NCBI GenBank assembly: GCA_041651055.1
Contig: JBAZJW010000001.1
Location: 242,661-306,660 of the forward strand
DNA: 64,000 nucleotides
DNA from: Minisyncoccota bacterium
GTDB taxonomy: Bacteria > Patescibacteriota > Minisyncoccia > Phycocordibacterales > UBA5272
Direction of reading: 5' to 3'
In this document: piece by piece, positions 2,896 through 63,420 of the stretch
Position numbering within the stretch: position 1 is the first letter of the stretch
Layout: each line of letters starts with the position of its first letter
The notes under the pieces: model-generated
What the model saw: the letters and a program-made list of their open reading frames with translations, nothing else
What the model was told of the DNA's origin: nothing
Database searches by the model: none
Translations under genes and position numbers: made by a program

Positions 2896-3005
2896 TTGCT
2901 TCAGATACGAGGCGGAAGAAATTTTTACGACCAAGACGTACGCATAGTACGTCGCGTGGAGGAAAAATTTCTTCCAACGAAGTAGATGGAGTGATTTTGA
3001 GCTTA
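2896..3005 (-). repeat. R1 structured repeat, copy A, between dnaJ stop and the trpS promoter
   Basis: Shares AGATACGAGG 5' flank, outer stem GGAAGAAATTTTT/AAAAATTTCTTCC, inner hairpin GACGTACGCATAGTACGTC and CGAAGTAGATGGAGTGATTTT 3' flank with copies at 7654, 14148, 39664. Confidence 0.7.
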
Positions 3006-4097
3006 CAAGCCCTCTTCTTTTAACCCGTCAATGTGAGTTAGAGCTTTCTTCGAAAGCTTCTTCGGCATATGAATATCCAATTTCACAAGAACATCTCCTC
3101 TCTTTCCTTTTTCATGAATATACGGAACACCTCGAGAACGCACACGGAGTATTTCTCCTGTAGCTGCACCGGATGGAATGTCGATATCAATAGAACCATC
3201 GAGTCCATCAATCGTATGCTTCACACCGAGTAAGGCATCAGTGAGTTTGATACTGTGCGTAATACTCAAATCGTTTCCTTCACGCTTCCACACTTTGTGT
3301 GGTGTAACATTTATTTTTACATACAAATCCCCGGTCGTTCCACCTGAGACAGCTTCTCCCATTTGTGACATACGAATCATTTCGCCATTTGCGATTCCTG
3401 CCGGAATCGCAATATTCACTTCTTCACGAGAGTTCACAATACCGTTGCCCTTACAATCATGACACTTCTCTTCAGGAACTTTCCCTGTACCACGACATGC
3501 ATCACACGTATGTACGGTCTGGAAATTACCCATGAATGTTTTCTTCACATCATGCACTTTTCCTTGACCATTACAGGTCGTACAGGTTTTCATTTTTGTT
3601 CCAACTTTTGCCCCCGTGCCTGTACATGTCTTACATGTATTTACTTTCGATAGCAAAACGTTTCTCTCTGTACCAAAGATGGCTTCTGCAAATGGGATGT
3701 CAATTTCAAGTGAAATGTCTCGTCCGCGTTTAGGGCGTGATCCGAAACCGTTGCCTCCTTGTCCACCAAATATATCTCCGAATATATCTCCGAGATCACC
3801 AAAATCAAATTCCATACCCTGGAAGTCTGATTGATTGAATCCACCACCGAACCCTCCGAAGCCTCCCGCTTGTGGTCCTTGACCATTGAATGTCTGACCG
3901 TACGTATCGTATTCTTTTCGCTTCTTTTCGTCAGAGAGTGTTTGATAGGCTTCGTTTATTTCCTTAAACTTCGCTTCATCCCCTCCCTTTTTGTCAGGAT
4001 GATACTTGGCCGCAAGTTTATAGAACGCCTTTTTTATATCGTCTTTTGACGCCCCCTTATCTACCCCAAGCACGTTGTAATAGTCTTTAGTTGCCAT
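3003..4097 (-). CDS. dnaJ: chaperone DnaJ
   Basis: J domain with HPD, G/F-rich linker, four CxxCxGxG zinc-finger repeats. Confidence 0.95.
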
Positions 4098-7653: not shown

Positions 7654-7780
7654 TGAGATGAATGCAAGGCGTGAGAAATTTTTGCGACCAACAAATCTAT
7701 TTTGGTCCAAGACCTGAATTTGCTAATTCAGATGCGTGGAGGAAAAATTTCGAGAAACGCAGCAGTCGCTCAATATTTTA
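7654..7780 (-). repeat. R1 structured repeat, copy B (divergent core) between rpsI and grpE
   Basis: Keeps flanks GAGAAATTTTTGCGACCAA and GCGTGGAGGAAAAATTTC (outer stem GAAATTTTT/AAAAATTTC) but carries a different inner hairpin CTGAATTtgctAATTCAG. Confidence 0.6.
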
Positions 7781-7840
7781 TCGTTTAGACCACCCATTCG
7801 ACTCGCCTAAGGCAGACAAGGCTCGCTCAGGGTGTCGTAA

Positions 7841-14147: not shown

Positions 14148-14252
14148 TATTTTAGATGCGAGGCACGGAGAAGCGAAAGAGGAGACGTAGTTAATGCTAC
14201 GTTGACGAATGAGAGAGGCTCCGTAACGAAGCAGATGAAATAATTTTAAGAC
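14148..14252 (-). repeat. R1 structured repeat, copy C, abutting the alaS stop codon
   Basis: TTAGATGCGAGG flank, outer stem ACGGAG/CTCCGT (a different sequence at the same position as in other copies), inner hairpin GACGTAGTTAATGCTACGTTGACG identical to copy D, 3' flank CGAAGCAGATGAAATAATTTTAAG. Confidence 0.7.
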
Positions 14253-18619: not shown

Positions 18620-18663
18620 AATATGAGAAACAGTATACCAGTTTACAGCTTACAGTCTACAGA

Positions 18664-18700
18664 AAACAAAGAGCGGCGCCTACGGCGCCGCTCTTTGTTT
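18664..18700. terminator. GC-rich palindromic terminator AAAGAGCGGCGCC-TAC-GGCGCCGCTCTTT
   Basis: 13-bp perfect stem, T run on the minus side after the methyltransferase gene. Confidence 0.75.
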
Positions 18701-18728
18701 TCTATCTCTCTCCTTTATGCTCTCCCCT

Positions 18729-23955: not shown

Positions 23956-24056
23956 AGTTGATAGTTATTCGTTGGTCGTTGGTCGTTATTCGTTAAACAC
24001 GAATATAAATCAACTAAAAGCAGAGAAAGTGACTCCCACCACTTTGCCCCACTAGC
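23956..24056 (-). promoter_or_regulatory. mraZ upstream region with five tandem heptads (AACGAAT AACGACC AACGACC AACGAAT AACTATC on the mraZ strand) and GTGGG-N5-GTGGT-GGG direct repeats 70-95 nt upstream
   Basis: Seen directly; GTGGG/GTGGT repeats at ~10-bp period resemble known MraZ operator architecture. Confidence 0.45.
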
Positions 24057-24159
24057 AACCATTATACTCCACTTTTGTTCTACAGCACTAGGAAATGAAG
24101 TGGATAAGTCGAGAAACAGTTTATAGTTACTAGTTTTTAGTTTCTAGTAAATACCTCAA

Positions 24160-24199
24160 TACATAAAAAGCGCGTCCTTCGGACGCGCTTTTTATGTAT
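24160..24199. terminator. perfect palindromic bidirectional terminator ATACATAAAAAGCGCGTCC-TTC-GGACGCGCTTTTTATGTAT
   Basis: 18-bp arms with A/T runs on both sides. Confidence 0.8.
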
Positions 24200-24209
24200 A
24201 CTTAATATA

Positions 24210-24722
24210 TTACAAAAACTTATTATATAAATCAAAAACTTCTTCTGAATACGCAATAAAATGAACCTCTTCAAAAGAGTAATCTTTTTCCAGATAATTT
24301 TTTATTGTTTTAACGGCTATTTGTGTTGCCTCTTCTTTTGGATACCCAAATATACCAATTGAAAGTGCTGGGAATGCAATTCTTTTTATTCCATGTTCTT
24401 TTGCCTTATCTAAAACATTTTTATATGTTAATTTCAGAAGTTCTTTTTCCTTCCCATCTTCTTGGCCATATCGTGGAGCAACTGTATGTAAAATATATTT
24501 TGCTGGAAGTTTATATCCTCTAGTTACTTTAACCTCAGCTTTTTTGCAACCACCGAGTCTTGCACACTCTGAAGATAACTCTTGCCCTGCGGCATAATGA
24601 ATAGCCCCATTTACACCACTACCACCACATAAATACTCATTTGAAGAGTTAACAATTGCTTCTACATTAAATTTAGTTATGTCTCCCAAATAAACTTTTA
24701 TTCTCTTCATTTTAATAATCAA
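24210..24722 (-). CDS. macro-domain protein (ADP-ribose-binding / O-acetyl-ADP-ribose deacetylase, YmdB-like)
   Basis: GDITK...EAIVNSSNEYLCGGSGVNGAIHYAAG macro signature; very AT-rich gene. Confidence 0.8.
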   Translation of the reverse strand: MIIKMKRIKVYLGDITKFNVEAIVNSSNEYLCGGSGVNGAIHYAAGQELSSECARLGGCKKAEVKVTRGYKLPAKYILHTVAPRYGQEDGKEKELLKLTYKNVLDKAKEHGIKRIAFPALSIGIFGYPKEEATQIAVKTIKNYLEKDYSFEEVHFIAYSEEVFDLYNKFL

Positions 24723-25023
24723 GACCCTTTTCTAACATACAAGCTTTATATTCTGATTCATACGACTTAAAATTGTTACTAAAATCGTAATGTTCTCTTG
24801 AAAGAAGTTTATAACAATCTTTTCTAATTTCTGATGGTCTATACTGAAACCAATAAAATAACAAAATAAACACTATAAAAATAGTAATCAATTTAATATT
24901 TTGTCTCAAAAATTTGCCTGTAATTATTTTAATTCTATGCTCTACTGGAAATAAATGCATAACATCATCCATTGTGGTCTCATGTATAGAATTCCCTTTT
25001 TCATCTGTATAAGTTCTTCCCAT
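24712..25023 (-). CDS. small single-TM membrane protein (103 aa from MGRTYTDEK)
   Basis: Start trimmed to avoid lysS overlap; TM LITIFIVFILLFYWF; very AT-rich. Confidence 0.5.
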   Translation of the reverse strand: MGRTYTDEKGNSIHETTMDDVMHLFPVEHRIKIITGKFLRQNIKLITIFIVFILLFYWFQYRPSEIRKDCYKLLSREHYDFSNNFKSYESEYKACMLEKGLDY

Positions 25024-36360: not shown

Positions 36361-37023
36361 CTAGTTCTTGTGTTGCGGCAATAAAAGAGACAGATACTCG
36401 AGGAGGGCTTTTCCTGAAGCTGAAGGGTCAGATGCATAGGAGGCAGTTTCTAAGGTTTCGAGTACGTATCGTGATTCTATTTTTTCTTGCGAAAGAACTT
36501 CGACGAGCGAGAGTATGAAGTTTCGTACACCTTCTCTGTCCTTTCTCCCCTCTTCATCCATGCGAGCAAGAAGTTCTATGACAAAAGGTAACTTCATGCG
36601 CGCACCATACGGCGCGTGCATGAATTCTTCTGCATGTGCATCACTCTTACTTCCTTCTTCTTTCTCCGTACTCCTCATTTCAAGTACTCTTGAAATGACT
36701 GTCCCAATGAGACTTGTTTTATTACTCGTCAGTAAAATAAATCGCACACCAGTTCGTGGCTCTTCCAACAATTTAAGCATTGCATTTTGTGCTGGAATCG
36801 TCGCAGTATGAAAAGAAATGAGTGCGATCTTTTCTTCATTATAGGGAGTGTTCGTCCACGAAGTTAGCGCCCGTGCTGTTTCGATATCAAGTACGGTTTG
36901 GTCGAAAAATTTGTGTGCAGGAGAAAGAGCTTGAAGTTCGTTCCAGAGCGCGAGGCCTACGGCCTCGCGCTCACCATGCACGACAAGCACCGCATGATGA
37001 AGAGGTAAATCAGAGAGTTTCAT
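36361..37023 (-). CDS. holB: DNA polymerase III delta-prime-like clamp-loader subunit (AAA+ fold, degenerate P-loop)
   Basis: SFHTATIPAQNAMLKLLEEPRTGVRFILLTSN sensor-1/box motif; start trimmed to MKLSDLPLHHAVLVVHG. Confidence 0.7.
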   Translation of the reverse strand: MKLSDLPLHHAVLVVHGEREAVGLALWNELQALSPAHKFFDQTVLDIETARALTSWTNTPYNEEKIALISFHTATIPAQNAMLKLLEEPRTGVRFILLTSNKTSLIGTVISRVLEMRSTEKEEGSKSDAHAEEFMHAPYGARMKLPFVIELLARMDEEGRKDREGVRNFILSLVEVLSQEKIESRYVLETLETASYASDPSASGKALLEYLSLLLPQHKN

Positions 37024-37163
37024 ATGCTTCAAGTATAGCAAAGAATTAGCCTTGCGAGAGATTATGTATTTAAGTAGAATACGCACCAGACTGCTCTTTT
37101 ACAGAAAGAGCTCCTCATATCACCAGTTCTTGGCACATCAACCCTTTTAAAAGAGAGAACGTC

Positions 37164-38330
37164 ATGAAACCAGATCATTCATCTCTTGCAAAAGAGAGAA
37201 GTCGCACGGGTATAGGTACGTTTACTGAAGGTGGAACGGTAGGGAAAGCTATCCGTGACGCAGAAGTCATGGAAAGACGAGCAATGTACGTTATCAAACT
37301 TGATGATAAAGGAAATGTTCGTGAACATTACCGCAACCCCCCTTTTGAAACACTTCTTGATTGCATCGTTGTCCTCGCACCTGCAATATTCCAAGGTGTA
37401 AGAATAGAAGAAGCTGTCGCAATGGAAATTGGCCTGAGTCGTACGGCACCAGGAAAGGCGATTGAAATTAAAGCGGATAGACCTGACTGTAAAAAACAGA
37501 AGGAGGTCATTCAGCAAAGACTACACATCGGAATCCTTCCCTGGCACGTCGTCGAAAAGCTACTACCAACCCTTTGGATCGCAATACAGCAATGTATTGA
37601 TAAAAAAATGGAAGGGTGGACAAGAGCGCGGTTCATTCAGAGCCCAGATTCAGGCAGCGAAAATCGTAACAAGAAACGTCTTTGTGTTTACGAGTCATGG
37701 ATGACAATTCGTGTTCCAAAAGAATATGCGTTGGTCTATACCATACTGCGACTCAAGGACGAATCCGACAAACTGAAGCCTGGAAAAAACTACGCCGAGG
37801 TAGCAGAGTCTGTTTCTCGAGAGCTTAATCTCTTTCGAAATCTTAACCCATCTCATCATGAAAGGTATTCAGATGAAGTCTTAAAAAGATCTGGCACTCT
37901 AAGATGGATGGCTGATTGGATGAAAAAGAAAGTCGAGTTTCATGGTTACACCATGCGCTCGCTTAAAGCTGTGCGGAAATTATTGAAGGAAAGAAGTCCA
38001 CAAGACCTCGCTCTCTTTAATACCGTGTGTCGAGTGTTTAGGGTTCCAGAAGCCCCGCCTGACATTTTTCTTGATGTCCACGAGCCACTGTTGGGTAACA
38101 AGAAAAAACAGCTACTCCTTGAGTGTCCACTCAGACCACATCGGGTGTACAAGTATGAAAAGCGCAGAAAGCTCACTCATGCACACGCACCTGATTGCTT
38201 CACCATTGCTATCGTCGGCAGTCATGCTCATTTGGAGAAGCTTGATGCTCGTAACACTCTCAACCGTATCAAAACAGCCAGAGAAACGAGAAAGTTCGTT
38301 CCCGACGACGACTCAGACATCCCCTTCTAA
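37164..38330 (+). CDS. hypothetical 388-aa protein, first gene of a two-gene plus-strand module
   Basis: No motif recognised by eye; several HxH/His-rich patches near the C-terminus (THAHAPDC, GSHAHLEKL); weak purine-rich RBS. Confidence 0.6.
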   Translation: MKPDHSSLAKERSRTGIGTFTEGGTVGKAIRDAEVMERRAMYVIKLDDKGNVREHYRNPPFETLLDCIVVLAPAIFQGVRIEEAVAMEIGLSRTAPGKAIEIKADRPDCKKQKEVIQQRLHIGILPWHVVEKLLPTLWIAIQQCIDKKMEGWTRARFIQSPDSGSENRNKKRLCVYESWMTIRVPKEYALVYTILRLKDESDKLKPGKNYAEVAESVSRELNLFRNLNPSHHERYSDEVLKRSGTLRWMADWMKKKVEFHGYTMRSLKAVRKLLKERSPQDLALFNTVCRVFRVPEAPPDIFLDVHEPLLGNKKKQLLLECPLRPHRVYKYEKRRKLTHAHAPDCFTIAIVGSHAHLEKLDARNTLNRIKTARETRKFVPDDDSDIPF

Positions 38331-38349
38331 ACATTAAAAAGGAGCTCCC

Positions 38350-39558
38350 GTGAAAATAGCACATCTGTCCGTAGCAGGACTCAACACTTGTAGACAACAG
38401 GTGATCGCTGTTCCTCGCGGGGCACCAATCACCAGCACTCGCTTCTTCGCATCTCACGATGTGTTTGAAAACGACAACATGATCATGCATCTGGCGAAAG
38501 CAGAGGAGCTCATCCTTGCATTAACCGGTGCATACAGACGCGGTGAGTCTATGTTTCAAAGCGTTCGCGCTGAGACGCATGGACCACAGTACACCTATGT
38601 GCCAGGATACGAGCTCGGAAGAATTCGTGCTCGTCGAATGGACTACCTGCCAGGTGTTGAAGGTCCAGATATCAGAGTCATTAAAAAAGGAAGTCCGAGG
38701 CATCTCCTGTTCCTTTTCTTCGCGACACTTACAGACAGAAGGACGAAGAGTGGCGGCGACTTCGGTGTCTATGCTTCACACTGCAAAATCTACCACAAAC
38801 ATCCTGAGCTTTACACCTCATCTGCCATCTCTTGGAACAAGGGCGACCTTGGAAAACTCTTGAGTCGGTACAAAATTGGTGTCCCAAACCAATCCGCAGA
38901 ATATTGGATACGTTGTGCCGAGACACTTTTTGGAAATTATGGGGGAAACCCTGTACGTCTCTACGAAGAACACGGGAGTAACGTGGAAGGTATTCTGAAA
39001 TTCAAAGAAGCAGGAAAAAGGCTTGGCAAAAAAAATGGCGACAAGGAAAGTGGAGACCCTCTCCCTGGATATGGTCCCAAAATTGCCTCGCTATACGCTT
39101 TGTTTCTGGATGCGTTCGGCGCCTTGCCGTTTCCTGAGGATGCCTTTCCTGTTGATGTCCAGGTGCAGAGACTTTTCATTCAGTACGGTGCAATAACCAT
39201 GAAGACAAGAGTGTCAAATGCACTGATGGAAAAAACTATTAGACCCCTCGTGTGTCTTTTGGCCAAATTCCACGGACTGGATAAACAGGACATATCACAT
39301 GCGTTTTGGCTTTTGGGAAGCCAAGGATGCACCTCCTGTTCCCGAAGACTTAATGCACCAACGATATGCCCAATCTACTCGAAGTGCCTCGGTTGTCAGA
39401 ACACCGCGAACTACTTTGCGAAAGGTCTATGGGACCCCGCAGACGAACCAATGAAAAAAGGTGCTGCTACGGTTACGTTTGGAATGCTCGCAGAGCGCCC
39501 CACACGGTACAGCCGGAATCCGACAAAAAGCACCCAGATGCATTTGTTCACTGAATAG
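38350..39558 (+). CDS. HhH-GPD superfamily DNA-glycosylase-like protein with a C-terminal 4-Cys cluster and an N-terminal ~130-aa unknown domain
   Basis: GTG start with AAGGAG 5 nt upstream. HhH motif LPGYGPKIASLYALFLDAFGALPFPEDAFPVDVQVQRL (compare EndoIII LPGVGRKTA...FPVDTHV) with Lys and Asp positions conserved. Cys cluster CTSCSRRLNAPTICPIYSKCLGC. Confidence 0.65.
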   Translation: MKIAHLSVAGLNTCRQQVIAVPRGAPITSTRFFASHDVFENDNMIMHLAKAEELILALTGAYRRGESMFQSVRAETHGPQYTYVPGYELGRIRARRMDYLPGVEGPDIRVIKKGSPRHLLFLFFATLTDRRTKSGGDFGVYASHCKIYHKHPELYTSSAISWNKGDLGKLLSRYKIGVPNQSAEYWIRCAETLFGNYGGNPVRLYEEHGSNVEGILKFKEAGKRLGKKNGDKESGDPLPGYGPKIASLYALFLDAFGALPFPEDAFPVDVQVQRLFIQYGAITMKTRVSNALMEKTIRPLVCLLAKFHGLDKQDISHAFWLLGSQGCTSCSRRLNAPTICPIYSKCLGCQNTANYFAKGLWDPADEPMKKGAATVTFGMLAERPTRYSRNPTKSTQMHLFTE

Positions 39559-39574
39559 AAGGCATACTCAGTGC

Positions 39575-39625
39575 CCACAGACTGCTCATCCTCCCCCCAA
39601 GGCTCTGAGCGGTTTTTTTTATTTC
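39575..39625 (+). terminator. weak hairpin (GCTCA...TGAGC) followed by T8
   Basis: T8 run at 39613-39620 after the glycosylase-like gene. Confidence 0.4.
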
Positions 39626-39663: not shown

Positions 39664-39766
39664 TGTTTTAGATACGAGGAGCCTAGGAATTTTTCTAGGA
39701 GACGTAGTTAATGCTACGTTGACGAAGAAAAATTCCGTAGCGACAAAGTAGATGAAATAATTTTTA
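39664..39766 (-). repeat. R1 structured repeat, copy D, abutting the stop codon of the second mreB
   Basis: TTTTAGATACGAGG, outer stem GGAATTTTT/AAAAATTCC, inner hairpin GACGTAGTTAATGCTACGTTGACG, 3' flank CAAAGTAGATGAAATAATTTTTAG. Confidence 0.7.
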
Positions 39767-40777
39767 GCGTTTGGCAAAGATACTGCGTTTGTAAGTATCG
39801 AGATGTTCAAGAGCTATACCTGTCCCCTTCGCCACACAATAGAACGCATCCTCTGCGAGAACCGCTTTGACCCCCGTACGTCTCTCTACTAAGTCTGGGA
39901 AATGACGCAACATCGATGTCCCCCCTGACATAATAATTCCATTATCAATAATATCTGACGCGAGTTCAGGAGGAGTCTCTTGAAGCACATCTTTGATTGC
40001 TTTAATCATTAAACGAAGTTCTTTATCGATCGCCTTTACAATTTCATTCGTTCGAATCTCTACAGTGCGTGGAAGCCCTGCAATAAAATCTCGCCCCTTC
40101 ACTTTCATGGAAAGCTCTTCTTCAACAGGCAGAGCACTTCCTATTTTTATTTTTATTTCTTCAGCAGTCTGGTCTCCAATCGCGAGGTTATATGTCTTTT
40201 TAATGTAATCAATAATTGCCTGATCAATTTTGTTGCCCGCGCATTTCACCGAAGTACTACAAACAATACCGCCAAGAGAAATAACCGCCACGTCTGTCGT
40301 ACCTCCTCCGATATCGACAATCATTCTTCCTTGCGCCTCATGAATAGGAATACCTGCACCGATAGCAGCCAAGATAGGCTCCTTCACCACGTATGCATTT
40401 CGTGCACCTGCCTTTAATGCCGCTTCAATAACCGCACGACGTTCCGTTGAGGTCACTCCTGCCGGCACAGAGACCATCACATCTGGTTTGAAAAAAGTAA
40501 ATCCACCGAGCGCTTTGTGAATATAATACCGAAGCATCGCTTCTGTCACACGATAGTCCGCGATCACACCATCACGCATCGGACGATATGCAATAATCGA
40601 GTCCGGTGTCTTTCCGATCATGTCTTTGGCTTCTGTTCCCACTGCCATAATCTTATTATCAATTTCAGACACCGCGACGACAGATGGCTCCACAAGGACA
40701 ACGCCCTTTCCTGGGACATACACAAGCGTGTTGGCCGTTCCTAAATCGATACCTAGTTTCTTGGAGAAAAATCCCAT
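39764..40777 (-). CDS. mreB: second MreB-family actin homolog (Mbl-like paralog)
   Basis: LGIDLGTANTLVY, DIGGGTTD; 337 aa; distinct from the copy at 30504. Confidence 0.9.
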   Translation of the reverse strand: MGFFSKKLGIDLGTANTLVYVPGKGVVLVEPSVVAVSEIDNKIMAVGTEAKDMIGKTPDSIIAYRPMRDGVIADYRVTEAMLRYYIHKALGGFTFFKPDVMVSVPAGVTSTERRAVIEAALKAGARNAYVVKEPILAAIGAGIPIHEAQGRMIVDIGGGTTDVAVISLGGIVCSTSVKCAGNKIDQAIIDYIKKTYNLAIGDQTAEEIKIKIGSALPVEEELSMKVKGRDFIAGLPRTVEIRTNEIVKAIDKELRLMIKAIKDVLQETPPELASDIIDNGIIMSGGTSMLRHFPDLVERRTGVKAVLAEDAFYCVAKGTGIALEHLDTYKRSIFAKR

Positions 40778-53941: not shown

Positions 53942-53978
53942 GTTTTAGTTTATAGGTTACAGGTTTTAGAAAATATGA

Positions 53979-54016
53979 AAACAAAGAGCGGCCATGAAGT
54001 GGCCGCTCTTTGTTTT
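53979..54016. terminator. terminator AAACAAAGAGCGGCC-ATGAAGT-GGCCGCTCTTTGTTT
   Basis: 15-bp stem between the convergent nitroreductase and nrnA genes. Confidence 0.8.
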
Positions 54017-61290: not shown

Positions 61291-63420
61291 TTACTTCCCT
61301 CCCAGCTTATATAGAGAGTAGATTTCTGAAGCAGAGAGCGAGCGATTATATACTCGGACATCATCGAGAGACCCTGTCATTTTTCCTCTTATTCCACAAC
61401 CAGGATCTGCTCCAACTGACAGATTTTCTAAACTGTTCCAAGCAACACCTGTGGCACTTGTTGTGGTACTAAGATTACCGTTTATATACAAAGAAAGGGT
61501 CGAACCATTATATGTCCCTGCAACGTGTGTCCATTTATTGATTATAGCGTTTGAATCTGAAGAAATTCTCTTGTTTGCAGTTGTGTTACTAGTACCGAAC
61601 CCAAAAGAATATTTGTTAGGATATTCAGCACTTTCAGTACCACCTATTGATAGGTAATAACTTGCATACGTAGAACAACCAAGTCCGTGGTACATAAAAT
61701 TCTGATAAGTCGTTGTTGATGTATACACCCAAGCAGAAAGTGTCATAGGTCCACCAGTAAGACGAAGAGCTGCGCTATTTCCTGCAGTGAAATAATCATT
61801 CACCCCATCAAACCGAAGCCCCTGCCCGATCTTCCCTATAGCAACCGTTGGCCCATTCGTAAGTGTTCCATTATTTCCATTCCCACTTACATCTGTCGCG
61901 GTGGCGCTTGTCATATTCTTGCCATCAAATGTCCACCAACCGACGAGACCGGAGGTGAGGGTGAAGGTGGGAGAAACGTTAAGGCTACCAGCTTGAGATT
62001 TGTAGAGGGCGTAGATCTCTGTGGAGGAGAGTGCTCGGTTGTAGATGCGAAAATCATCTATCTTTCCATTTATATAACCATTATATCCATTTCCTATCCA
62101 CGTATAGGTTCCCGCGTCTGTACCAATAGAACCAACATAAGAGCCATCAGGAACTGAGTTTTTATATGCCCGCCAAGTCGTACCGTCGTAAGTAAGCACC
62201 ATATGATACCAAAGATTATCACTTACATTTTCTGTTATTGGATAACTATGATTCAGAAACCAATCAACTTGTGTTGGACTTGTTCTCTTCAATAAAATCC
62301 AAGGTGAAGTATCTGAAAGACTTCCAGCAATTTGCATTATTCCTTTTGTTGATTGTGCCCCTCTAAGATTCATCCAAAAAGAAATTGAAAGGGTGCTCCC
62401 TATAGCTGTTTTGTTAAGATTGCTTTTTACGTAATCGTCCACTCCGTCGAAATCCAAAGCTTGACCAATTTTACCAATAACTGCAGTTGTACCATTTGTA
62501 CGTGTCCCGTGATATCCACTACCACTCATATCCGTCGCGGTGGCGCTTGTCATATTCTTGCCATCAAATGTCCACCAACCGACGAGGCCAGAGGTGAGTG
62601 TGAAAGTGGGAGAAACGTTAAGGCTACCAGCTTGAGATTTGTAGAGAGTATAAATTTCTTGGGCAGAAAGTACGCGATTATATATACGAACATCGTCAAG
62701 AGTTCCGTCAAAGGGTCGTAGATTATCCCCTCGGTTACCGATTGTCATTCTCACTACACCTGCACCAGCATAGCCAGCTGCAGCAGACATTGTTTGAGGT
62801 ACACCATTAAGATAGACGCTTGAAAGCGTGGTTGTTCCGTCCCAAGTAACAACAGCGTGGTACCAAGTATTCAATTTATTCACACTATTATTAGGAATTT
62901 TTCTATACGATGTAACCCCTCCAATGACAATAGTTACTATAATTGAATTTTCGTCGGCGTTGCCAGTTTGAGGTATTCCAATAGCCCAATAATTTGATTG
63001 ATTAGCCGTAGAAGACTCTTCAAGCAAACGTGGTAAATTCGTTGTTAAAGAGTTACGTTTAAACCAAAATGACACAGTTTTAACATTACTCCCAGCAAAA
63101 CTACTGGCATCGGGCACAGAAACATAATCATTCGAACCGTCAAAATAAAGACCTTGTCCAATCTTCCCTTTTGTGACCAATGGCCCATTCGTACGTGTTC
63201 CATTATTTCCATTCCCACTCACATCTGTCGCGGTAGCATTCGTCATGTTCTTCCCATCAAATGTCCACCAACCAACAAGGCCGTTTGTAAGATTTTGACC
63301 GGCGGTATTTGTGGTGACCAACGCCCCCGCTTGTTGTGTATGAACAAATACCAGACATGCGAATACAACGCCGAATATCAGTACTTTATATTTTGTGAGT
63401 ATGATTTTAAGTTTGTTCAT
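61291..63420 (-). CDS. secreted protein with three tandem LamG / concanavalin-A-like lectin domain repeats
   Basis: Signal peptide; triplicated ~210-aa unit (LTSGLVGWWTFDGKNMT.ATATD.SGNGNNGT..NG...IGKIGQ.L.FDG..DY); adjacent units are nearly identical at the DNA level. Confidence 0.8.
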   Translation of the reverse strand: MNKLKIILTKYKVLIFGVVFACLVFVHTQQAGALVTTNTAGQNLTNGLVGWWTFDGKNMTNATATDVSGNGNNGTRTNGPLVTKGKIGQGLYFDGSNDYVSVPDASSFAGSNVKTVSFWFKRNSLTTNLPRLLEESSTANQSNYWAIGIPQTGNADENSIIVTIVIGGVTSYRKIPNNSVNKLNTWYHAVVTWDGTTTLSSVYLNGVPQTMSAAAGYAGAGVVRMTIGNRGDNLRPFDGTLDDVRIYNRVLSAQEIYTLYKSQAGSLNVSPTFTLTSGLVGWWTFDGKNMTSATATDMSGSGYHGTRTNGTTAVIGKIGQALDFDGVDDYVKSNLNKTAIGSTLSISFWMNLRGAQSTKGIMQIAGSLSDTSPWILLKRTSPTQVDWFLNHSYPITENVSDNLWYHMVLTYDGTTWRAYKNSVPDGSYVGSIGTDAGTYTWIGNGYNGYINGKIDDFRIYNRALSSTEIYALYKSQAGSLNVSPTFTLTSGLVGWWTFDGKNMTSATATDVSGNGNNGTLTNGPTVAIGKIGQGLRFDGVNDYFTAGNSAALRLTGGPMTLSAWVYTSTTTYQNFMYHGLGCSTYASYYLSIGGTESAEYPNKYSFGFGTSNTTANKRISSDSNAIINKWTHVAGTYNGSTLSLYINGNLSTTTSATGVAWNSLENLSVGADPGCGIRGKMTGSLDDVRVYNRSLSASEIYSLYKLGGK

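Follow-up and report, generated by a model that had tools for sequence, protein, structure and literature searches.

A 64,000-nucleotide stretch of contig JBAZJW010000001.1 from a Minisyncoccota bacterium (assembly GCA_041651055.1; the whole stretch is called the window below) carries two adjacent genes, P1 (37164..38330, + strand) and P2 (38350..39558, + strand). Our census of related loci supports P1–P2 as a real, widely co-occurring module that is not described in curated libraries. We read the pair as a chromosomal, vertically inherited operon of Patescibacteria/candidate phyla radiation (CPR) bacteria that would encode a partner-dependent base-excision enzyme; judging from sequence comparisons and structural models, we put the probability of this reading at roughly 0.55. 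It is carried by the fold class of P2, an invariant Lys/Asp dyad, a four-cysteine (Cys4) site, the linkage of P2 with either P1 or a ParB-like protein, the housekeeping context of the pair and the conserved C-terminal tails of both proteins. The searchable literature gave no description of the P1–P2 pairing, nor of a glycosylase partner that mimics the tip of SSB, the protein that binds single-stranded DNA.

Pairing of P1 and P2 across genomes

Loci came from contig look-ups, GTDB species representatives and metagenomes, searched with iterated hidden Markov models. Among the GTDB species representatives P2 was present in 31 species, all of them metagenome-assembled genomes of Patescibacteria/CPR. 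The partner of P2 was counted in 36 non-redundant, evaluable loci selected by the presence of P2. A P1 homolog stood directly upstream of P2 on the same strand in 30 of these loci; in six others the adjacent partner was a ParB_N-like protein of ~370 aa with an AG(E/H)RR motif; loci with neither partner (0/36) or with both (0/36) did not occur. The genes of P1 and P2 overlapped or were at most ~150 nt apart. Pairwise identities showed that the two proteins co-diverge (Mantel r = 0.76, 0/2000 permutations), P1 being the faster-evolving one. The sequence-only reading, an earlier interpretation of this locus made without database searches, had proposed to look for co-occurrence of the two families across genomes, and the 30 of 36 loci with P1 upstream bear it out.

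Throughout one large clade the pair was always situated between holB and mreB-priA, with P2 identity of 41-69%, down to ~40%. The order holB-pair-mreB-priA was seen in 8 non-redundant GTDB/metagenome loci as well as in the loci L046 and L047. In other lineages the pair adjoined smpB/argS, rplL/rpsL or ftsZ/clpB; P1 was found upstream of P2 in at least four different genomic contexts. No third gene family recurred next to the pair across the loci. As the holB-mreB-priA slot is kept down to ~40% P2 identity, the pair is no recent insertion. The earlier description of the pair as an inserted, apparently acquired module is not supported on these grounds: relatives at 41-69% P2 identity use the same slot, and the GC content of P1 is normal.

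Two genes for unknown proteins, one of them an enzyme that attacks DNA, could be taken for an anti-phage or modification-sensing system, and were so taken by the sequence-only reading; the glycosylase would attack modified phage DNA and P1 would act as sensor or regulator. Glycosylase-based defences exist, and P2 has the highest GC content of all open reading frames (ORFs) in the window, a mild excess (z = 2.3) that we regard as gene-specific composition; P1 is ordinary in this respect (z = 0.8). Against defence, PADLOC-DB 2.0 contained 0 families for P1 or P2 at E <= 1; no defence, mobile, methyltransferase, restriction-like or modified-base biosynthesis genes recurred around the pair; and no P2 relatives were found in IMG/VR or in phage and plasmid collections. 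Furthermore, the neighbours are housekeeping genes in every lineage, the syntenic position among essential genes is fixed across deep divergence, and the co-divergence of P1 and P2 gives no sign of shuffling. With the synteny fixed, viral, phage and plasmid copies missing and PADLOC silent, the defence-island reading is left unsupported, and we consider it quite improbable.

A more distant arrangement was observed on a high-GC contig of 361 kb (L049:1121-5245). Here the products of a P1-like gene (E = 4e-16) and of a distant P2-like gene (E = 7e-34) end in ...DLAHVPF and in ...QSDLFSSECPFA (with the motif QSDLF), respectively. The P1-like gene is the upstream one, two unannotated genes (217 and 252 aa) stand between it and the P2-like gene, and the group is found directly upstream of gyrA. 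Possibly the module exists here in a four-gene form.

Fold and conserved residues of P2

An AlphaFold2 model of P2, built on the alignment of its family, was confident, with a predicted local distance difference test score (pLDDT) of 88.7 and a predicted template modelling score (pTM) of 0.87. When it was compared with the PDB by Foldseek, all hits with probability >= 0.9 (ranks 1-21 and 23) were proteins of the HhH-GPD fold: QNG1/DUF2419, Deinococcus radiodurans EndoIII-3, MutY, MUTYH and Ogg of archaea and Thermotoga. The likeness was low (TM-score 0.38-0.62, on target 0.44-0.62; identity 10-16%); still, the model has the two-domain, all-helical architecture common to EndoIII/Nth, MutY, Ogg and AlkA.

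In the signature of the HhH-GPD superfamily a hairpin hPGxGxK/T precedes a stretch rich in Gly/Pro and a catalytic Asp; P2 has this signature as LPGYGPKIASL...FPVDVQ. The hairpin PLPGYGPKIASL (residues 237-248; 39058..39093, + strand) contains the invariant G240, G242 and K244 and aligns with LPGVGVKTASL of D. radiodurans EndoIII. The invariant Asp269 of FPVDVQ (39154..39156, + strand) takes the position of the HhH-GPD catalytic Asp and aligns with the Asp of EndoIII PVDTH; as in EndoIII and MutY, the PVD Asp lies ~20-25 residues downstream of the hairpin with its lyase Lys. Among the residues invariant in 57 P2 homologs were G240, G242, K244, D264, D269, C327, C330, C340 and C346. When the profile of the P2 family was run against PDB sequences, the top match was EndoIII; it was marginal (E ~0.06 over 50 residues), but the alignment spanned exactly LPGxGxK...PVD, with K244 and D269 placed on the lyase Lys and the catalytic Asp of EndoIII. 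The alignment to EndoIII given by the sequence-only reading was reproduced in this way, and its two key residues proved invariant.

A cysteine cluster, C327-x2-C330-x9-C340-x5-C346(-x2-C349) (39328..39396, + strand), is a predicted metal site ([4Fe-4S] or Zn). In the model it closes the helical core on the C-terminal side, which is also the place of the cluster loop in EndoIII and MutY. The first four cysteines are invariant in the 57 sequences, while C349 is not. The spacing of the EndoIII loop, C-x6-C-x2-C-x5-C, is absent from P2, where C-x2-C-x9-C-x5-C is kept without exception. The cysteine loop that had been compared with the EndoIII iron-sulfur loop stood as a pattern and in its first four positions; its fifth cysteine turned out to be variable and its spacing unlike that of EndoIII. 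The P2 family has an invariant motif TDRR..S..H (D129, R131, S134, H144) in a conserved N-terminal region that is extra to EndoIII and MutY. An extra N-terminal domain of ~130 aa had been described; only residues 1-45 are specific to a subclade, and the rest is conserved family-wide.

As for curated families, P2 had no Pfam match even at E <= 1, PF00730 and DUF2419 included, and no NCBIfam, PADLOC or PHROGs family; its single sequence found nothing in the PDB by phmmer. For P1 and P2 the libraries yielded only noise: EPS8, DUF6563 and, across the Cys region, a PHROG match of 33 residues. Clustered at 90% identity, the close P2 family numbered 57 clusters, and a Pfam domain was present in none of them; sub-threshold HhH-GPD (PF00730) matches appeared in 13 of these 57 members, the best at E = 6.6e-4. 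An exhaustive profile search gave 724 representatives at E <= 1e-3 and 78 at E <= 1e-30. Distant representatives showed weak AGOG or HhH-GPD matches; AGOG (PF09171) came up below threshold in three of them (E = 9e-4 to 5e-3), and there was no AGOG Pfam match for P2 of the window or for the 57-member alignment. AGOG and archaeal Ogg (PDB 3knt, 3fhg) are nevertheless among the fold matches; they are HhH-GPD glycosylase/lyases that share the Lys and Asp with P2 and, unlike P2, are not known to have a metal cluster or a partner.

Judging from the model and the alignments, we conclude that P2 is a glycosylase/AP-lyase-like HhH-GPD protein of a deep new branch and no ordinary Nth. Homologs of P2 have been deposited as 'hypothetical protein' or, in several automatic JGI annotations, as 'endonuclease III', and EndoIII is the best PDB sequence match; one could therefore suppose an ordinary endonuclease III beside an unrelated hypothetical gene. 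Such a chance adjacency is contradicted by the co-occurrence of P1, which is upstream of P2 in 30 of 36 loci and at least four contexts, often overlapping it. In addition, no NCBIfam/TIGR nth model and no Nth, HhH-GPD or FES model was matched at threshold, and the Cys spacing differs. Nth and MutY are stand-alone enzymes, whereas P2, at 10-16% identity to them, has an obligate genomic partner and a long disordered tail with a clamp-like end. We regard an ordinary enzyme with a chance neighbour as very improbable; neither an ordinary Nth/MutY enzyme nor a pair confined to this genome, outcomes that the sequence-only reading had named as fatal to its proposal, is what we found.

The fold match with the best Foldseek E-value (8e-4) was QNG1/DUF2419 (PDB 7u07, 7ugk). 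QNG1 is a queuosine-5'-monophosphate hydrolase that acts on free nucleotides; it is not known to have a Cys4 cluster or a partner gene. Similar in size to P2, it was aligned over ~335-390 columns, with a TM-score of 0.38-0.52 (TMq = 0.38), an identity of 10-12% and no DUF2419 Pfam match on the side of P2. According to the titles of the deposited mutants, K199C and D231N, QNG1 has an Asp/Lys pair as P2 does.

Within the wider P2 family a distant homolog (L048:254-1597, protein P0208) was seen to carry an N-terminal fusion to thymidylate kinase. In the fusion protein the Lys of the hairpin and the Asp of PVD are retained, and the Cys cluster and the tail are missing. It hints that a part of the wider family works in nucleotide metabolism.

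P2 could be a salvage hydrolase acting on the glycosidic bond of free (modified) nucleotides, as QNG1 does on queuosine-5'-monophosphate, and so supply these auxotrophic cells with bases. CPR bacteria depend on salvage, QNG1/DUF2419 leads the Foldseek list over most of the P2 length, and the thymidylate kinase fusion of one distant homolog points in the same direction. On the other hand, the canonical DNA-binding hairpin hPGxGxK is invariant in P2, the Cys4 cluster takes the place that the DNA-contacting cluster loop has in EndoIII and MutY, the tails resemble clamp- and SSB-type motifs, and the neighbours (holB, priA, gyrA, the ParB-like gene) are concerned with DNA. On this evidence a salvage role appears improbable.

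Partner proteins, terminal tails and proposed mechanism

P1 is a basic protein of 388 aa (pI 9.6); P2 is basic as well, the two spanning a pI range of 9.4-9.6. The sequence-only reading recognised no motif in P1, and our searches agree with it: P1 had no match in Pfam, NCBIfam, PADLOC or PHROGs, nothing meaningful among PDB sequences with the single sequence and nothing with a profile, and no structural match in the fold search. A word-indexed profile search for further P1 homologs gained three sequences. The P1 model was of moderate quality (pLDDT 74, from 10 sequences) and showed a beta-rich N-terminal unit, a helical body and two long basic loops of low confidence. The broad P1 family conserves charged and aromatic residues (K28, D32, E88-x-G-x-x-R-x-x-P-Y, E101, R119, D199), a pattern that suggests an enzyme or a nucleic-acid binder more than a pure scaffold.

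Both proteins end in low-confidence tails with short motifs. The C-terminal tip of P1, PDDDSDIPF (38301..38327, + strand; a region of low pLDDT), resembles the SSB tip: it is an acidic C-terminus that ends in IPF at the free end (DDDSDIPF). P1 has no OB-fold domain for binding of single-stranded DNA such as defines SSB itself. Near the C-terminus of P2, in the tail ...QMHLFTE, a motif QMHLF (39535..39549, + strand) resembles the beta-clamp-binding motif of the QL(S/D)LF type; it follows a low-pLDDT linker, two residues before the C-terminus, in a disordered tail with pLDDT of 50-64. The SSB tip (SSB-Ct) is DDDIPF, and the free carboxylate of its Phe together with the acidic residues binds basic pockets of PriA, chi, DnaG, ExoI, RecO and others (PMC5872125). 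The consensus of the bacterial clamp-binding pentapeptide is QL(S/D)LF, typically located at the C-terminus, and in mycobacteria the beta clamp stimulates the base-excision repair enzymes Nei2 and XthA (PMC9690074).

An acidic stretch with xPF at the extreme C-terminus was present in 23 of 37 members of the P1 family and in none of 203 control ORFs from the same loci. For P2 the motif QxxL[FLW] or [PH]LF near the C-terminus was counted in 53 of 82 family members versus one of the 203 control ORFs. As the family sequences are related, the fractions 23/37 and 53/82 measure conservation and not independent events. Relatives of P1 end in DDDIPF (L033), NDDDIPF (L045) and EDDIPF (L046), others in NEIPF or NECPF, and some have two copies of the tip. 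Close relatives of P2 have QLHLF, QIHLF or QxLLF; in most others the tail reads GPLF or TPLF, and distant ones have QSDLF, RQLVLF or RQLSLL. In the family alignment L399 and F400 of P2 are nearly invariant, and the tails of both proteins are conserved while the low-confidence linkers before them vary. Among the 129 long ORF segments of the window P1 alone has an [ILVC]PF ending. An SSB gene was sought for comparison of tails in the window and in the collected loci, and none was found there.

The six loci of the census with a ParB-like protein and without P1 are L011, L012, L021, L022, L030 and L047. Their ParB-like proteins are mutually homologous (44-74% identity), and the gene is placed upstream of P2 on the same strand, divergently or convergently; in L011 and L047 it occupies the same holB-mreB slot. 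The P2 proteins beside it are scattered across the P2 tree. When the search was made reciprocally, starting from the ParB-like protein, P2 was adjacent in one of three evaluable loci, and the other two had SMC, RNase R and rnc as neighbours. This protein of the ParB type is probably a factor of chromosome organisation, with recurrent linkage to P2 in loci that lack P1. We also considered P1 itself as a cryptic ParB ('LEIGxSR' versus 'AGERR') and rejected this: when the P1 family and the ParB-like partners were compared by hhalign, the probability was 0.2%, and P1 had no Pfam match to a ParB_N domain with a GxRR motif.

Some further observations concern this CPR family of ParB_N-like proteins (~370 aa, AG(E/H)RR), which barely reaches Pfam thresholds. 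Its members were noted beside P2 in L011, L012, L021, L022, L030, L044 and L047. In L042 and L043 the gene lies between RNase R and rnc, next to SMC and in convergent orientation to it.

We propose the following mechanism for the partner-dependent base-excision reading. A hairpin Lys together with a downstream Asp is used by bifunctional DNA glycosylase/AP-lyases of the Nth, Ogg and AGOG types. P2 would be an enzyme of this kind, flipping out and excising a damaged or non-canonical base, while its flexible tail would dock on the clamp DnaN at the replication fork or behind it. P1 would serve as the DNA-targeting or activating subunit; its tip might plug into a pocket of the SSB-Ct type, and this pocket would belong to P2 itself (E. 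coli Ung is a client of SSB-Ct) or to a fork protein, for instance PriA, which is encoded three genes away. Together the two would link base excision to replication or chromosome transactions. The ParB-like neighbour where P1 is missing suggests that the partner provides loading or targeting on DNA rather than the chemistry. The substrate, the catalysis, the assembly of P1 with P2 and the docking on the clamp or in an SSB-type pocket are what we infer here.

One could speculate further and picture a replication-coupled, CPR-restricted, two-subunit base-excision machine with a beta-clamp anchor and an SSB-tip mimic. P1 would have a new fold and mimic the SSB tip to join the SSB network or to capture the glycosylase, and would be evolutionarily exchangeable for a CTP-dependent DNA clamp of the ParB type. 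This specific picture is tentative and on balance doubtful. A functional analogy may be drawn with human UNG2, a base-excision enzyme tethered at forks via short motifs for PCNA and RPA. The analogy is functional only: UNG2 has the UDG fold and both of its motifs on one polypeptide, whereas here the putative motifs are split over two proteins, and P1 would imitate SSB, whereas the motif of UNG2 binds the ssDNA-binding hub.

Several points weigh against the base-excision reading. The tail motifs are short, and their reading draws on likeness and conservation only. In the ParB-like partner an IPF tail is missing, and its gene is also found away from P2, beside SMC; perhaps it is a linked chromosome protein and no true substitute for P1. 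QNG1, the closest fold match of P2, is a nucleotide hydrolase and no DNA enzyme. P2 stays below the threshold of every curated family. Even among CPR bacteria few members of its family are found (78 representatives at E <= 1e-30), which is odd for an essential housekeeping function. Since the Cys spacing is unlike that of the EndoIII iron-sulfur loop, the metal may be Zn. The 'new fold' of P1 is provisional, as the model was made from only 10 sequences with pLDDT 74.

A further possibility is that the system modifies or exchanges bases of its own chromosome: P2 would be a transglycosylase or a demodifying glycosylase, with P1 or the ParB-like protein as a DNA-loading activator. Modification systems typically have an obligate partner and repair glycosylases usually do not, and QNG1, the top fold match, binds a hypermodified base. 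ParB-like aid to base-modifying enzymes has precedent: phage thymine dioxygenases are activated by ParB-like proteins, and DpdB supports DpdA. In phages, proteins of the ParB fold are experimentally established activators of enzymes that modify DNA bases (5mYOX-ParB; PMC13229309), and this makes a loading or activating role of the P2 partner plausible. The six of 36 loci with an adjacent ParB-like protein resemble the phage 5mYOX-ParB arrangement, where a base-acting enzyme is likewise coupled to a protein of the ParB/CTPase fold (PMC13229309). These ParB-dependent enzymes, however, are of the dioxygenase or TGT class and come from phages or islands, whereas P2 is an HhH-GPD protein of chromosomal, housekeeping location, mostly with a P1 unrelated to ParB. 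Moreover, no modified-base biosynthesis, methyltransferase or restriction-like gene recurs nearby, the ParB-like gene also occurs beside SMC without P2, and the Lys/Asp dyad that is invariant in P2 belongs to repair enzymes of the lyase type. We regard base modification as unlikely.

If the base-excision reading is correct, the module would add a new branch to the HhH-GPD superfamily, a glycosylase-like core with a partner of unrecognised fold; we know of no earlier case of an HhH-GPD enzyme genetically obligated to a partner. The specific picture, if true, would present a DNA glycosylase in need of a loader, and a non-SSB protein that mimics the SSB tip would wire a repair enzyme into the bacterial replisome hub in a new way. 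The genomes of CPR/Patescibacteria are tiny, and their DNA-repair repertoire is reduced and not well understood. The alternation of P1 with the ParB-like protein ties in with the emerging theme of ParB-fold activators of enzymes acting on DNA bases. More generally, pairs of an enzyme and an unknown partner are not all immune systems.

Locus layout and other features of the window

The layout read from the sequence alone was confirmed in most details. P1 starts with ATG (388 aa) and P2 with GTG (402 aa) on the plus strand; in the 19-nt spacer between them a Shine-Dalgarno sequence AAGGAG (38339..38344, + strand) was read directly, 5 nt 5' of the GTG. In the family alignments the N-termini of homologs align from the called starts of both genes. 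ORF calls and a domain search placed the neighbours on the minus strand as stated earlier: a DNA_pol3_delta2 (holB-like) gene, preceded by frr, on the 5' side and mreB on the 3' side, with a PriA-like gene beyond mreB. The operon also has its own probable intrinsic terminator after the P2 stop (39579..39622, + strand), a hairpin at 39579-39615 followed by U8; RNA folding gave -20.3 kcal/mol (z = -2.75 versus shuffled sequences). A simple terminator scan missed this hairpin because of its internal loop, and scans for promoter and terminator consensus gave no excess over the shuffled background.

Two candidates were tried and rejected. A 10-nt direct repeat CAGACTGCTC at both flanks of the module (37087 and 39578) was at chance level, with 4 matches versus 2.95 expected. 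As one homolog was labelled Gracilibacteria, genetic code 25 was considered; five partner genes had the same translation, except for terminal UGA stops in L005 and L008. P1 and P2 of the window are long and intact under table 11.

The holB-like ORF (36361-37086, - strand) has a GTG start and 241 aa, ~21 aa more than its orthologs (217-221 aa). The real start is probably an internal Met (MKLSDLP..., ~37023). The divergent holB/P1 intergenic region would then grow to ~140 nt, and a promoter-like site at 37052-37080 would fall within it.

A repeat R1 of ~100 nt was observed in four intergenic regions (2930-3010, 7710-7790, 14150-14250 and 39665-39770). Its core AGGAGACGTAGTTAATGCTACGTTGACGAA is identical in 30 of 30 positions between 39697-39726 and 14180-14209, and its internal hairpin has compensatory stem changes between copies (ACGTAG..CTACGT, ACGTAC..GTACGT, CTGAAT..TCAG). 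There was no match for it in Rfam; it may be a structured RNA or a regulatory element of this genome. The copy noted at the 3' flank of the pair is a real repeat. It adjoins the stop of mreB, and R1 is met again in other, unrelated intergenic regions; it does not mark a module boundary.

Elsewhere in the window, a unit of ~275 nt (family D1) is present in three copies at 61793-63399, with 61-78% identity to the reference copy and spacings of 639 and 693 nt; these are probably a repeated domain or paralogous small genes. The GC content dips sharply at 24001-25000 (0.31 versus a window mean of ~0.42). Near-identical GC-rich palindromes with flanking A/T runs (GAAAACAAAGAGCGGC...GCCGCTCTTTGTTTT; families D11 and D12) at 18662-18701, 53977-54016 and 2816-2854 look like shared bidirectional terminators.

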